From IMG/VR virus record IMGVR_UViG_3300033463_003852: a stretch of 10,273 nt of DNA; one strand, written 5' to 3'. The notes under the pieces are model-generated. The model ran no database searches. It was not told the DNA's origin and was given only the letters and a program-made list of their open reading frames with translations. Of this stretch, positions 7,018 to 10,273 are shown piece by piece (within the stretch, counting starts at the first letter, position 1; every line of letters begins with the position of its first letter). The stretch comes from a virus. The translations under genes and the position numbers were made by a program.

Positions 7018-7215
7018 TTAGCCCACCACAATGCAAGCCACACAGTCCATGTTGTAGATTCCAATCCAAACGCCTCTGCGCTTAACTATAAACAAGCCAT
7101 TAAGGTATTCGTAGTCATCCCATATTCTTGATGGAATTTCTTCTAATCTGCCATCTTTATAGCAAATTTTAATAGTGGCTTTATCCATTATCTTCATGTG
7201 CTCTTTCTTTTTCAT
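7018..7215 (-). CDS. Hypothetical small protein (65 aa).
   Basis: ATG 7215 overlaps the upstream TGA as ATGA. AAGGAA lies 9 nt upstream. Stop is TAA. Confidence 0.5.
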   Translation of the reverse strand: MKKKEHMKIMDKATIKICYKDGRLEEIPSRIWDDYEYLNGLFIVKRRGVWIGIYNMDCVACIVVG

Positions 7216-7499
7216 TTATATATTCCTTCTTCCATCAAATAGCATTTAGCAGTATCTTGTATAAAATTAATAATCAAATCTTCAAGTTCTGGGGCAAGTT
7301 TAATATCATTATGACTTTTTAACCACTCGATTTGATAATCTCTGATGTTATGCACAATGTCTTTTTTTTGATCTGGCTCGATGGTCGGTGCATGCCGCAC
7401 TTCTTGCATGCATTCAGCAATAACAACTCTTGCACAATCACTAAATGGCTCTTTGCGAATTATTGCTTTTATCAGTGCGTCCGCATCAATCAATCTCAT
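7212..7499 (-). CDS. Array member: N-terminal 'MRLIDADAL...APTIEP' module plus a unique C-terminal region (95 aa).
   Basis: ATG 7499 with SD GGAGAGGGaacagg. The start lies inside the acidic tail/stop of the upstream gene with a 14-nt overlap. Sequence: MRLIDADALIKAIIRKEPFSDCARVVIAECMQEVRHAPTIEPDQKKD... The longer track start lacks an SD. Confidence 0.65.
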   Translation of the reverse strand: MRLIDADALIKAIIRKEPFSDCARVVIAECMQEVRHAPTIEPDQKKDIVHNIRDYQIEWLKSHNDIKLAPELEDLIINFIQDTAKCYLMEEGIYK

Positions 7500-7908
7500 C
7501 CTGTTCCCTCTCCATCTGCCATCCGCAATTCGGGCAGTAGTTCGTTGTTGTTGGCATCCCAAAAACTGTGTAAATTGAGTAACCACACTCTGAACACTGA
7601 TATGTGATACTATTAGGATGTGAAAACAAACCTCGTTCGTGTTTACCTATCCACTTCCCCTTCCGCTCTGGATGTGACGCAAGCCACTGTATGATTGCCT
7701 GTCTGCTGTCGGTATGTTGCATCCCATAGTCGGTAAAAAGCCATTTTAGTTTTTCGTACTGTTCCTCTGGTGTAAGTCCAGACAGAAAATTCCGCTCTGG
7801 CTGTGCGGATAAGGCTTGGATTGCTATTTCAACAGCTTCGCAAAGATCAGTAAAACAGGCTGACGGATAATTATGTTTTAAAACGTCTATCGCCTCTTCT
7901 CTCGTCAT
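7486..7908 (-). CDS. Array member: zinc-ribbon protein (140 aa) with CxxC...CxxC at the C-terminus and an acidic tail EREQDEID.
   Basis: ATG 7908 with SD GAGGTGAcaaaa. ...YQCSECGYSIYTVFGMPTTTNYCPNCGWQMEREQDEID. Stop is TGA. Confidence 0.6.
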   Translation of the reverse strand: MTREEAIDVLKHNYPSACFTDLCEAVEIAIQALSAQPERNFLSGLTPEEQYEKLKWLFTDYGMQHTDSRQAIIQWLASHPERKGKWIGKHERGLFSHPNSITYQCSECGYSIYTVFGMPTTTNYCPNCGWQMEREQDEID

Positions 7909-7918
7909 TTTTGTCACC

Positions 7919-8068
7919 TCATTTTTTATTCAACGCATCTGCAATCCGTGACAGCTGATAGTTAATATTTTTCAAATCTGTATGATAATCGTATGTGTGC
8001 GGTATGCTCCAACCTATCGCTACGGCAATCATTGCCCCAACAAGTATAATTGCATTTGCTGTTGTCAT
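7919..8068 (-). CDS. Small membrane protein (49 aa, one TM), absent from the supplied ORF track because it is under 60 aa.
   Basis: Hand translation: MTTANAIILVGAMIAVAIGWSIPHTYDYHTDLKNINYQLSRIADALNKK. ATG 8068 overlaps the upstream TGA as ATGA. The SD is GGAAGGTGAgcagga, the same motif as other array starts. Its own TGA sits in the SD of the next gene. Confidence 0.5.
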   Translation of the reverse strand: MTTANAIILVGAMIAVAIGWSIPHTYDYHTDLKNINYQLSRIADALNKK

Positions 8069-8403
8069 TCCTGCTCACCTTCCTCTCGGTATGGCTCCGA
8101 CAACGACATCCAAGCAAGAACATTACTCGGCAATAGTTCTGTCCCCAAATCTGGCACAGTAAACCATTCACCATCTTTATAATAACCTGTTACAATCCAA
8201 CCATTATCAAGGCATATTTGCACTCTAACAGGCGTGTCCGGCAGACGCTCACTGCACGGAATCCACCGCTGTTCTGGCTCGATGGTGGGTGTCTTATCAA
8301 CAAGCCATTCAACCAAGACGCCAAAGTCTTCATACGACTTTTTCATACCCTTCGCCTCATGATGTGCTTTCTCTATCAGCGCATCCCCATCAATCCGTTT
8401 CAT
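8065..8403 (-). CDS. Array member: MKRIDGDAL N-module plus a DUF551-like C-module (WIPCSERLPD...AWMSLSEPYREEGEQE), ~112 aa.
   Basis: ATG 8403 with SD GAGGTGcgat. The alternative ATG 8415 adds 4 aa. ...TPTIEPEQRWIPCSERLPDTPVRVQICLDNGWIVTGYYKDGEWFTVPDLGTELLPSNVLAWMSLSEPYREEGEQE. Confidence 0.65.
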   Translation of the reverse strand: MKRIDGDALIEKAHHEAKGMKKSYEDFGVLVEWLVDKTPTIEPEQRWIPCSERLPDTPVRVQICLDNGWIVTGYYKDGEWFTVPDLGTELLPSNVLAWMSLSEPYREEGEQE

Positions 8404-8653
8404 ATCGCACCTCATTTCCAGATACTCCGTTGCATCTTACGGCAAATTTAAGTGCTTTTATTTCGCCCTTCATGCTATCGTTCTGTCTGCTCAGATATTC
8501 AATGTGTGCTTTCAGTTCTTCGTACATCTTTTCCATTTCAATGTTACTTGTTACAGTCGGAGCATTCTTCACCATGTCAGCTATTAACTCACGGCTGTCA
8601 AGTTTATCTCTGTATACATGCTCCAGAAGCGCATCCGCATCAATCAAGCGCAT
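8390..8653 (-). CDS. Array member: MRLIDADAL N-module plus a short coiled coil (87 aa), with no DUF551-like module.
   Basis: ATG 8653 is 1 nt after the upstream stop, with SD AAGAAGGTGAttgat. MRLIDADALLEHVYRDKLDSRELIADMVKNAPTVTSNIEMEKMYEELKAHIEYLSRQNDSMKGEIKALKFAVRCNGVSGNEVRYETD. The 94-aa N-terminal extension in the ORF track has no SD and overlaps the upstream gene. Confidence 0.6.
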   Translation of the reverse strand: MRLIDADALLEHVYRDKLDSRELIADMVKNAPTVTSNIEMEKMYEELKAHIEYLSRQNDSMKGEIKALKFAVRCNGVSGNEVRYETD

Positions 8654-9035: not shown

Positions 9036-9303
9036 CCTGTTCACCTTCCACATCCCTAACTTTTTCTTCGCAATATCTGACAAGTATATTCTGTTCGTTC
9101 CAATACTTCACTGCTTCATCAACCGTCATTGCCAGTTGTGCAACGGTAGCACCGCACTTTGAACATTCCAAACGCTTGAATAGAATCATCGGTTCTCTGC
9201 CATATTCAGACTCATACCATCCGTCAGGGTAGTCCTGTTCAGGAATGGCGTAATGTACATATTTCGGTTCTCCACCGCAAAGTTTGCATCGTTTAGCTTT
9301 CAC
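9022..9303 (-). CDS. Lar-family restriction alleviation-like zinc-ribbon protein (93 aa) with an acidic tail EGEQDETD.
   Basis: MKAKRCKLCGGEPKYVHYAIP...KRLECSKCGATVAQLAMTVDEAVKYWNEQN matches my recollection of the Lar family pattern: CPFCGG...(strand)...C..CGA......EAI.AWN. GTG start 9303 with SD GAGAGGTGAacagga. Confidence 0.6.
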   Translation of the reverse strand: MKAKRCKLCGGEPKYVHYAIPEQDYPDGWYESEYGREPMILFKRLECSKCGATVAQLAMTVDEAVKYWNEQNILVRYCEEKVRDVEGEQDETD

Positions 9304-9316
9304 TCCTGTTCACCTC

Positions 9317-9622
9317 TCACCTGGCATCGTCTGCCTCATATGGTTCTGGAAGTGGCATCCAAGCTTTAACGCAATTCGGCCTTCTATAATATCCATGTTC
9401 CACAGACCATTTACCATTTTTTATCTTCGAAAACATCACGCCATTGTGCCATTCTTTTGCACTTGATGAACCTCCAGCATAGTCTGGTGCATAAACGAGA
9501 TACGTCCCATCTTCTGGTAACTGTTCTGATACGGGTATCCACTGAGACATAATTTTGTTTTCTTCTAAATCCACATCTATATCAGTAATAGGCCTTTTTA
9601 GTTTTAATACAACTCTAGCCAT
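9317..9622 (-). CDS. Array member: DUF551-like protein (101 aa), ...WIPVSEQLPEDGTYLVYAP...KAWMPLPEPYEADDAR.
   Basis: ATG 9622 is 1 nt after the upstream TAA, with SD GGAAGGGAGAAtaaa. The longer track start at 9685 lacks an SD. Confidence 0.6.
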   Translation of the reverse strand: MARVVLKLKRPITDIDVDLEENKIMSQWIPVSEQLPEDGTYLVYAPDYAGGSSSAKEWHNGVMFSKIKNGKWSVEHGYYRRPNCVKAWMPLPEPYEADDAR

Positions 9623-9623
9623 T

Positions 9624-10025
9624 TTATTCTCCCTTCCACGGTTCAGGCAACGGCATCCATGCAACTGGTTCATCATCTTTATCAATTACAAAGTCGTTTG
9701 TGCGCCACTCACCATTATCAAACCATGCTATATATGGACTGTTCTCGAAAAGATAAACGAATACTTGTTCATTATTTTTGGGTGGTTTGGTTTGCCAAGT
9801 TGCGGATAAATCGAGATCATTGAGAGCAACGCAATTTAGTATTTCTACATCTTCTTCTCCTTCATTCCAATCTTGCAACCACACATAATTATATCCATTT
9901 TCAACGGTGAGAATTTCGTTTGTATATCTATATTCTGTTTCGTGATTATATTTAAGTTTAATTTCAACAATATATTTTTGGAGCGGTTGTTTGCTTATAT
10001 ATTTATTAAATTCTTCTATTGTCAT
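9624..10025 (-). CDS. Array member: different N-terminal domain plus the DUF551-like C-terminal half (AWFDNGEWRTNDF...VAWMPLPEPWKGE), 133 aa.
   Basis: ATG 10025 with SD GGAAGGGAGAAtcaataa. The 3' approximately 45 bp is near-identical to the 3' end of the next gene upstream. Confidence 0.6.
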   Translation of the reverse strand: MTIEEFNKYISKQPLQKYIVEIKLKYNHETEYRYTNEILTVENGYNYVWLQDWNEGEEDVEILNCVALNDLDLSATWQTKPPKNNEQVFVYLFENSPYIAWFDNGEWRTNDFVIDKDDEPVAWMPLPEPWKGE

Positions 10026-10273
10026 TTATTGATTCTCCCTTCCACGGTTCTGGTAATGGCATCCATGCAATGACTCGTTCCTCGTAGGTTTCACCAGTTG
10101 GATAACACCATACACCACCATTGTAATACAACAATTCGACCCATTTATAATCATCGCCATAATCTGGATTTCTGTGTTCGCATGTTGTTAAAACGCTCTG
10201 GCTCTCGCCGTACTCTGCAAACGGCAACTTTTCACTGCATGGTATCCACTGTAATGCTTCTGCCTTTCCATCA
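10006..10273 (-). CDS. Array member (partial; the 5' end is beyond the window): DUF551-like, ...QWIPCSEKLPFAEYGESQSVLTTCEHRNPDYGDDYKWVELLYYNGGVWCYPTGETYEERVIAWMPLPEPWKGESINDNRRI.
   Basis: The frame is open from 10273 down to TAA at 10006. The WIPCSEKLP motif is at the window edge. The M shown in the track is a TTG inside the domain, so the true start is upstream of the window. Confidence 0.55.
   Translation of the reverse strand, partial: DGKAEALQWIPCSEKLPFAEYGESQSVLTTCEHRNPDYGDDYKWVELLYYNGGVWCYPTGETYEERVIAWMPLPEPWKGESINDNRRI

Follow-up and report, generated by a model that had tools for sequence, protein, structure and literature searches.

Module exchange and interlocked gene junctions in an array of small phage early-region genes

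We examined an array of small genes in a 10,273-nucleotide (nt) stretch of viral DNA, IMG/VR record IMGVR_UViG_3300033463_003852 (hereafter the window). The array genes studied here, g1 to g10, are numbered from the high-coordinate end of the window and lie on its minus strand (Table 1). Their proteins are built from a few N-terminal and C-terminal modules, these modules have been exchanged between loci, the stop and start codons of successive genes are interlocked, and homologues occupy early replication and recombination regions. We consider it probable that the region is a translationally coupled, modular accessory block that recombines at the inter-module linker and at the gene junction, with acidic protein tails as a by-product of the junction and with products that may bind host or phage molecules.

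Under this proposal, the region would be the downstream third of a polycistronic, translationally coupled accessory block that follows the DNA polymerase III alpha (polIII) gene of an uncultured phage, probably of gut or rumen Clostridia. Each gene would give a protein of 50-140 amino acids (aa) drawn from a small vocabulary: a predicted helical N-terminal module (MRLIDADAL, hereafter the N-module, or the related types LISRQAAIDAL and MTxEEAI), a Pro/Glu-rich linker, P(T/S)(I/A/V)(E/Q)PE, and a C-terminal domain that may be a DUF551 beta-barrel with conserved W/P-rich ends and a hypervariable core, a 4-Cys zinc ribbon, or a coiled coil. Recombination at two short conserved stretches of DNA, the linker and the Shine-Dalgarno/start junction, would generate new combinations. 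Because a start of the form ATG-AGR-yTN-ATT-GAT carries TGA in both other frames, an upstream gene would stop at most 14 nt from it, and coupling would survive a swap.

Exchange of modules between genes and loci

An earlier note, made from the sequence alone, had described an N-terminal module, M(R/K)xID(A/G)DAL...(A/T)PT(I/V), in four genes and a C-terminal module, W(I)P(C/V)SE.LP...AWMPLPEP, in five. Both were found: the first in g5, g6, g7 and g10, where (A/T)PT(I/V) is reached after 31-46 residues, and the second in g1, g2, g3, g5 and g7, where its end varies as A-W-M-(P/S)-L-(P/S)-E/S-P/A-(Y/W). DNA patterns for the two modules, written post hoc from the copies themselves, occurred four and five times, respectively, compared to 0.00 expected in shuffled sequence.

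The same note had proposed domain shuffling, and this was borne out at the DNA level for window genes and recurs in other loci. The DUF551 part of g5 (window 8657-8893) has 92% DNA identity to locus L048, compared to 20-43% for the N-parts (blastn and sliding identity); the L048 gene begins with an unrelated N-module, MSDLISRQAAI...LPSAQPE. The break points are the linker just before WIPCSE and the ribosome-binding site GAAGGTGAT. The entire g6 gene is 87% DNA-identical to a gene of L167, where both the phage backbone and the flanks are unrelated. Further matches in foreign loci were stretches of 42-73 nt that covered the linker or start junction only. The linker DNA of g7 gave 43-53-nt matches (90-93%) to six unrelated loci, confined to the linker and WIPCSE, and DNA repeats within the array were 15-45 nt long and restricted to module borders.

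Protein comparisons gave the same picture. The N-subtype of g10 (80-87% identical) was joined to four other C-parts in metagenomic proteins P0001, P0002, P0003 and P0007. The g6 subtype preceded a coiled coil, DUF551, zinc ribbons or other sequences, and the g7 subtype preceded DUF551 or a zinc ribbon. In shared N-subtypes the switch of C-part falls directly after APTIEPE. Ten inter-locus pairs had N-modules at least 70% identical; the C-parts were unrelated (<35%) in five, 35-48% identical in four and concordant in one. Conversely, 15 pairs with DUF551 domains at least 70% identical have unrelated N-parts.

The modular theory of phage evolution places exchange at short conserved boundary sequences. 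The array resembles the nin and exo-xis regions of lambdoid phages, and anti-defence islands, in its small, tightly packed, same-strand genes, variable content and joints at gene borders. Unlike in the nin/exo-xis mosaics, exchange here also occurs within genes, at the inter-domain linker, so that protein domains and not only whole genes are shuffled. In the literature searched, DUF551 is known only as a portable domain, as a part of YfdS of prophage CPS-53 and as the C-terminal domain in Ea22 V2 of Stx phages; it is joined to varied N-parts and encoded in early phage regions that are not essential, exo-xis among them (PMC10834534, PMC4776307). In contrast to those two proteins, five DUF551 copies lie within 3 kb here, and the full array has six, counting remnants. 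They differ from the enterobacterial examples also in being fused to an N-module not found there and in their Clostridia hosts.

The Ea22-type mosaic proteins of lambdoid phages share the same design, with a helical, probably oligomerising N-part, a mobile segment and a swappable small acidic C-domain, and are likewise early (PMC10834534). Their N-parts, however, have no sequence relation to those of the array, the proteins described here are half the size, and many tandem paralogues stand in place of one gene. The Ead_Ea22 signature gave no Pfam match at E <= 1 in the ten proteins, and the likeness is architectural only. A mosaic accessory block rich in DUF551 and Lar-like genes within a phage early operon is of a familiar kind, to which the N-module and the junction grammar are modest additions.

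Gene junctions and acidic tails

The acidic tails reported in the earlier note are present, but their interpretation as mimics of DNA or of the SSB tail was not supported: eight of the ten are the Shine-Dalgarno sequence of the next gene, its overlapping start, or both, read in the upstream frame. Of the 22 junctions in the array, 20 have overlapping genes or a gap of no more than 13 nt, and the final codons of the upstream gene hold the Shine-Dalgarno sequence. GAA-GGT-GA(N) is then read as E-G-E/D, which accounts for REEGD, EEGEQE, VEGEQ.., WKGE and MEEG. The three tails that end in ..E(T/I)D are the start of the next gene read one frame off. Those of g4 and g9 lie on ATG-AGA-yTG-ATT-GAT (MRLID) and overlap the starts of g5 and g10, respectively, by 14 nt; that of g6 lies on the ATG-AAA-CGG-ATT-GAT of g7, and in each the stop is the TGA within ATT-GAT. 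At the g4/g5 junction, TGA is present in both other frames and the g4 stop falls within ATT GAT of g5. For g8, the downstream ribosome-binding site lies past the stop, and the protein has no acidic tail, ending in ..ALNKK.

Similar junctions were found elsewhere. Among DUF551 genes in other viral loci, 26 of 30 were followed by a start at -35 to +15 nt and had a Shine-Dalgarno sequence in the tail. Across all loci, using crude gene calls, the last six residues held 1.2-1.4 D/E where genes abut or overlap, compared to 0.57 at gaps of at least 15 nt (p = 6e-164). A function of the tails is not needed to explain their acidity. More generally, a short acidic C-terminus in a packed operon is often the ribosome-binding site or overlapping start of the next gene, not a functional motif, and should be read with caution.

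Codon usage at N-module starts was assessed in 45 distinct but related, non-independent sequences. Codon 2 was AGA or AGG in 42 and CGN in one, compared to a ratio of 51:21 at the conserved Arg of WIPCSERLP (Fisher p = 2e-4), and codon 4 was ATT in 42. As a consequence of this bias, both of the other frames have a TGA in the first 14 nt of 41 of the 45 starts. The upstream stop overlapped the N-module start by 4 nt in 18 cases and by 14 nt in 12, and only 6 of 60 scorable starts had no upstream open reading frame (ORF) ending nearby. The bias may indicate selection for stop/start coupling in whichever frame the upstream gene is read.

The earlier note had taken the array for a diversifying anti-defence cassette whose tails mimic DNA or the SSB tail, a version that we regard as unlikely. 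It agrees with the early-region position, with gene content that varies between relatives, with the distant likeness of g4 to Lar, with the Lar-like and Tad4 genes that neighbour comparable arrays in other phages (L083 and L167), and with the moderate acidity of the proteins (isoelectric point 4.3-5.6). Net charges of -2 to -15 are nevertheless far from Ocr-like values, and Pfam and PHROG scans gave no match to DNA-mimic families of the Ocr/ArdA type. The SSB C-terminal motif, DDDIPF, couples an acidic run to a hydrophobic (I/L)PF tip, whereas no tail of the array ends in (I/L)PF (the ends are ..ETD, ..EID, ..EQE, ..EGD, ..DAR, ..KGE, ..IYK and ..RRI). The derivation of eight tails from the next gene, and an acidic bias that is general for coupled genes, also argue against it. 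DUF551 was not found in the anti-defence protein literature searched, and no characterised anti-defence family was matched at its curated cut-off: general libraries (Pfam including Tad4, PHROGs, NCBIfam and PADLOC, with no dedicated anti-defence library) returned only the sub-threshold Lar-like match.

Module families and candidate functions

The assignment of the C-terminal module to DUF551 (PF04448, gathering score 22 bits) stood for g3, g5 and g7, which scored 39.4, 37.4 and 24.0 bits, and fell short for g1 and g2 (16 bits, E = 0.02). Both of the latter were matched by a clade-specific hidden Markov model (HMM) and by phrog_924/phrog_15198 (g1 to phrog_15198, E = 1e-5), and, as they also share WIP.SE.LP / AWMPLPEP, are divergent DUF551 relatives rather than certified members. 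The g1 module reads ..WIPCSEKLP..AWMPLPEPWKGESINDNRRI up to the stop, and the final 42 nt of g2 are 90% identical to the end of g1 (repeat family D1). There were 123 homologues of g7. A tblastn search with g5 gave just 12 weak matches, all DUF551-only, in Stx and Klebsiella phages.

The AlphaFold2 model of g7 (predicted local distance difference test, pLDDT, 84.6) comprises two helices, at residues 6-19 and 27-37 in the N-module, an extended linker, and a small beta-barrel of four to five strands. Foldseek searches of BFVD with this model returned mostly DUF551-named proteins of many phage groups (E 1e-5 to 1e-2, probability 0.99-1.0). Against the PDB, the best match was Hfq (E = 0.03), with nothing at E <= 1e-3. 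No solved DUF551 structure was found by Foldseek or by PDB sequence search, which gave just spurious matches to TPR designs. DUF551 is thus modelled as a small beta-barrel of Sm/SH3-like type, conserved at its ends and variable in its core; compared to Sm/Hfq and SH3/Tudor barrels there was no significant sequence or profile relation.

In 60 DUF551 copies not chosen by the search pattern, the initial W-I-P and the terminal V-x-A-W-M-P-L-P-E-P-Y are conserved, and the core varies in sequence and length except for one Trp. Synonymous positions of WIPCSERLP vary freely, and the constraint therefore acts on the protein; for the same reason, we rejected a DNA-level constraint or recombination signal as the cause of WIPCSERLP conservation.

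This conservation bears on whether the array is evolutionary debris, that is, functionless mosaic ORFs hitch-hiking inside an essential operon. Patchy presence, high turnover between relatives and a foreign GC signature would fit that explanation, as would fragments such as a 63-aa gene outside the window that retains just the ..MSLPEPYREEGEKNV end of DUF551 (also given as ..MSLPEPYREEGE). GC content is 0.41-0.46 across 7251-9750, compared to 0.28-0.39 in the rest of the window; two GC-richer blocks of the contig carry the N-module genes and are separated by the AT-rich g1-g2 stretch. Yet all ten ORFs are intact and have good ribosome-binding sites, protein motifs are conserved where synonymous sites vary freely, the family occurs widely (387 N-module representatives, with DUF551 relatives in the hundreds), and the junction codon bias implies selection for coupling. 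We consider debris very improbable.

The N-module had no family match in Pfam, the search that the earlier note had called for. PHROGs gave no match for g6 and g10, which carry the N-module without DUF551, a tblastn search with g10 gave none, and a literature search with the motif strings returned nothing relevant. A profile of the four copies retrieved 197 small proteins through a word index and 387 cluster representatives among 1.84 billion proteins. All were metagenomic, and nearly all were proteins of 43-204 aa in which the match begins at residue 1. Pfam partners among 132 N-module proteins were DUF551 in 14, zinc-ribbon families in at most 4 each and Lar in one, with no match in the rest. 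Scanning genome contigs with a narrow pattern identified only two loci, in Eubacteriales and Ructibacterium metagenome-assembled genomes (MAGs); named bacterial sources of homologues were Eubacteriales, Ructibacterium and Oscillospiraceae MAGs. The N-module is an undescribed N-terminal partner of DUF551, a modest addition to known biology. A ribbon-helix-helix reading was set aside, as no such family matched in Pfam at E <= 1 and aspartates make up the invariant residues at the N-terminus.

The earlier note had listed two different zinc ribbons, one of them Lar-like. Both ribbons are present, in g4 and g9, although g4 falls below the curated cut-offs for Lar. It scored 22.2 against 28.6 bits for Pfam Lar_restr_allev (PF14354; E = 2e-4) and 24.7 against 39.6 bits for NCBIfam TIGR03655 (E = 2e-5), with an end-to-end alignment to the Lar models, and matched phrog_599 "Lar-like" (E = 7e-7). 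As in Lar (PF14354/TIGR03655), its small 4-Cys ribbon aligns over the whole model, and Lar-family genes occur upstream in the array and in comparable arrays; unlike Lar proper, it passes neither curated cut-off. To our knowledge, Lar activity is known only for the Lar of the Rac prophage. The CxxC...CxxC ribbon of g9 gave zinc-ribbon Pfam matches (E ~1e-3) and matched phrog_10714 and phrog_30902. The coiled-coil variant that the note had reported is g6, modelled as helices 6-30 and 34-73; its C-part is a 40-residue helix (pLDDT 96-98) with weak leucine-zipper matches (HALZ/DivIC).

Sm-like barrels and zinc ribbons could also act as nucleic-acid-binding regulators of replication, transcription or translation in the phage or its host. 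Among solved structures, Hfq and Sm proteins have the closest folds, nucleic-acid binding is common among zinc ribbons, and the array lies between a polymerase gene and nucleotide/RNA-repair genes; roles have been suggested for YfdS in replication initiation and for Ea22 in the lysis-lysogeny decision (PMC4776307, PMC10834534). Against this, the proteins are acidic, not basic, the invariant residues of the N-module are aspartates, and a conserved nucleic-acid site would not be expected in a hypervariable barrel core. Regulators of this kind seem to us a shade less credible still than the mimic-bearing cassette.

The products may be non-enzymatic, stoichiometric binders of host or phage macromolecules that serve host takeover or counter-defence. 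We put this forward tentatively, on the basis of the small size of the proteins, their barrel, zinc-ribbon and coiled-coil folds, the conserved ends and variable core, and their origin in fast-turnover early accessory genes. The helical N-part may serve in self-association or scaffolding.

Several observations weigh against the coupled modular block of binders as we have drawn it. No module matched a protein of tested function above the curated threshold in Pfam, PHROGs, NCBIfam or PADLOC. The DUF551 proteins with a published phenotype, YfdS and Ea22 V2, are linked to replication control, stress and lysogeny, not defence (PMC4776307, PMC10834534), and the YfdS cluster inhibits replication initiation when over-expressed (PMC4776307). 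AlphaFold2 models of the N-module are moderately confident and not uniform, with two helices in g7 and one long helix in g6. The EADDAR tail of g3 is the sole acidic tail without a ribosome-binding-site origin, and window tails average 2.4 D/E in the last six residues compared to 1.4 for the average coupled gene, so that a functional contribution of the tails is possible. Conservation in alignment A3 is inflated, as the search retrieved sequences by shared 5-residue words, and the sequences behind the junction codon statistics share ancestry.

A broader version of our proposal is that the N-module, the P(T/S)x(E/Q)PE linker and the double-frame stop/start junction form a plug-and-play grammar, which would join a helical adaptor to many small binding domains while keeping frame and translational coupling, and that such arrays hold inhibitors of host defence or host machinery. 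This seems to us doubtful; if it were true, phages of Clostridia would contain a large unannotated reservoir of these inhibitors. DUF551 is among the commonest unexplained domains of phage early regions, and here six copies or remnants stand side by side. The locus distinguishes the constrained parts of the domain (W/P-rich ends) from the varying ones (barrel hairpins) and supplies concrete constructs for binding and anti-defence screens.

Early-region context and array layout

In agreement with the early-region placement of the earlier note, homologues lay in early replication/recombination regions in all eight contexts read, and never in structural modules. Genes that combine the N-module with DUF551 were found after cI/cro-type repressors in a temperate phage; among RecT, YqaJ, RusA, a methyltransferase and a replication organiser; near Dam and HNH genes; and in long small-gene arrays upstream of AAA_24/SSB/DnaB, with Lar-family genes and in one case Tad4.

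Two true relatives of the window phage were identified. L170 shares polIII (64%), an HD-domain protein (57%) and DUF7336 (51%), and carries at the same site about 16 small genes of the same vocabulary, one of them with DUF551. These are 30-46% identical to the window's genes, compared to 51-64% for the backbone genes. L088 shares the NTP-transferase (66%), an ERCC4 nuclease (64%) and the major vault protein (MVP; 59%); in this locus polIII directly abuts the NTP-transferase gene, and a mini-array of three to four genes lies upstream. We rejected as array-less relatives 79 loci that share the NTP-transferase gene, as only that one gene is common to them. Searched with megablast, none of 50,697 phage records matched the window.

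The window corresponds, in reverse complement, to part of a 59,317-bp ENA contig (ERZ27257207 k141_1723255), which encodes a protein identical to that of g6. All long ORFs of the window are on the minus strand. Ten genes fill 7212-10273, in keeping with the earlier note, which had counted at least ten, although g8 carries none of the modules. Starts assigned by a plain ORF finder were too long for g3, g5, g6, g7, g9 and g10. The full array in the contig comprises about 24 genes in about 7.9 kb and is cut by the window; it starts 11 nt past the stop of the 1157-aa polIII gene and ends at the NTP-transferase gene. Scans for promoters and terminators showed no excess, consistent with one long transcript, and an Rfam scan gave no match.

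Table 1. Positions of array genes, junctions and linker in the window
Feature	Position	Strand	Description
g1	>10273..10006	-	3' portion of a 144-aa gene, truncated at the window edge; helical N-part + DUF551-like C-module
g2	9624..10025	-	133 aa; unrelated N-part + weak DUF551 C-module
g3	9317..9622	-	101 aa; short N-part + DUF551; tail YEADDAR (stop)
g4	9022..9303	-	93 aa, GTG start; 4-Cys zinc ribbon, distantly Lar-like; tail EGEQDETD (stop)
g5	8655..9035	-	126 aa; N-module (~8894-9035) + DUF551 (8655-8893)
g6	8390..8653	-	87 aa; N-module + long coiled-coil-type helix
g7	8065..8403	-	112 aa, start MKRIDGDAL; N-module + linker PTIEPEQR + DUF551
g8	7919..8068	-	49-aa membrane-type peptide, hydrophobic N-terminal helix; ATGA overlap with g7
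g9	7486..7908	-	140 aa; different helical N-terminal module MTREEAI..AIQAL..SAQPE + ERKGKW + CxxC..CxxC zinc ribbon; tail EREQDEID (stop)
g10	7212..7499	-	95 aa; N-module + helical C-part without family match
Possible array tail	6839..7215	-	two small ORFs, 7018-7215 and 6839-7015
Conserved g4/g5 junction	9010..9050	-	Shine-Dalgarno GGAAGGTGAACAGG, then ATGAGACTGATTGAT; repeat family D4, four copies in array
g9/g10 junction, same type	7474..7514	-	84% match over 73 nt to L029, junction only
Linker DNA (T)PTIEPE of g7	8273..8294	-	second copy at 7372-7393 in g10; repeat family D10

The possible array tail consists of a 65-aa ORF without a module and an uncalled, Cys-rich 58-aa ORF, MKKDPCKNCIYYH..FCEPLEEK (also MKKDPCKNCIYYHKENNTC..FCEPLEEK), which overlaps the NTP-transferase start by 35 nt and by eye resembles the RCKDCK..FC..AERR module of upstream array members. 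Array members beyond the window use the same vocabulary: a further MRLIDAD module, several (I/L)(I/D)RQAAI...LPSAQPE modules that were also caught by the N-module HMM, RCKDCK...FC..AERRTDE modules, ERKKGKW zinc ribbons and a second Lar-family gene (precomputed Pfam).

The gene after a DUF551 gene often overlaps it by ATGA and encodes a very small hydrophobic peptide, as g8 does (L003, L010, L015, L021 and L081), and g8 itself has 77% DNA identity to L003 over 106 nt. Outside the window, L001 holds a 37-nt direct repeat with 95% identity (7390-7426 and 7610-7646); one copy lies inside a 161-aa gene from the AT-rich middle of the array, and the other immediately precedes that gene.

Downstream of the array are genes for an ERCC4 nuclease, DUF7336, an HD/ExoX-C protein and an 807-aa MVP homologue, and further on RlaP, a T4 Rnl1-type RNA ligase and a KTI12/AAA_33 kinase. 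The HD-domain protein (3989-4759, minus strand; HD E = 2e-7) has a C-terminal ExoX-like motif (ExoX-like_C E = 7e-7) and is 57% identical in L088 and L170. The MVP homologue (1551-3974, minus strand) matched Pfam MVP_shoulder (E = 3e-17) and PDB MVP chains (E = 1.6e-15 over residues 461-763), and the L088 copy is 59% identical; a 2023 preprint (10.1101/2023.11.10.566534) has already reported MVPs of human-gut phages. Downstream of MVP, the genes form a set of an RNA-repair type (RlaP nucleotidyltransferase, with its 5' part at window 1-851 on the minus strand, RNA ligase and kinase; L001 17803-20264), which suggests repair of cleaved tRNA.

The polIII alpha genes of L088 (5441-9976; 1511-aa product) and L170 (1-3150; Intein_splicing and LAGLIDADG matches) carry an intein, and the 1157-aa polIII of the window phage has none. 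L167, a phage whose array is comparable, has a gene for a TROVE (Ro60-like) protein as well as 1.6 kb without ORFs (the two features span 2969-4615 and 9700-11290). With the MVP of the window and the TROVE protein of L167, these phages repeatedly encode kinds of protein known from RNA-protein particles of eukaryotes, the vault and Ro particles.

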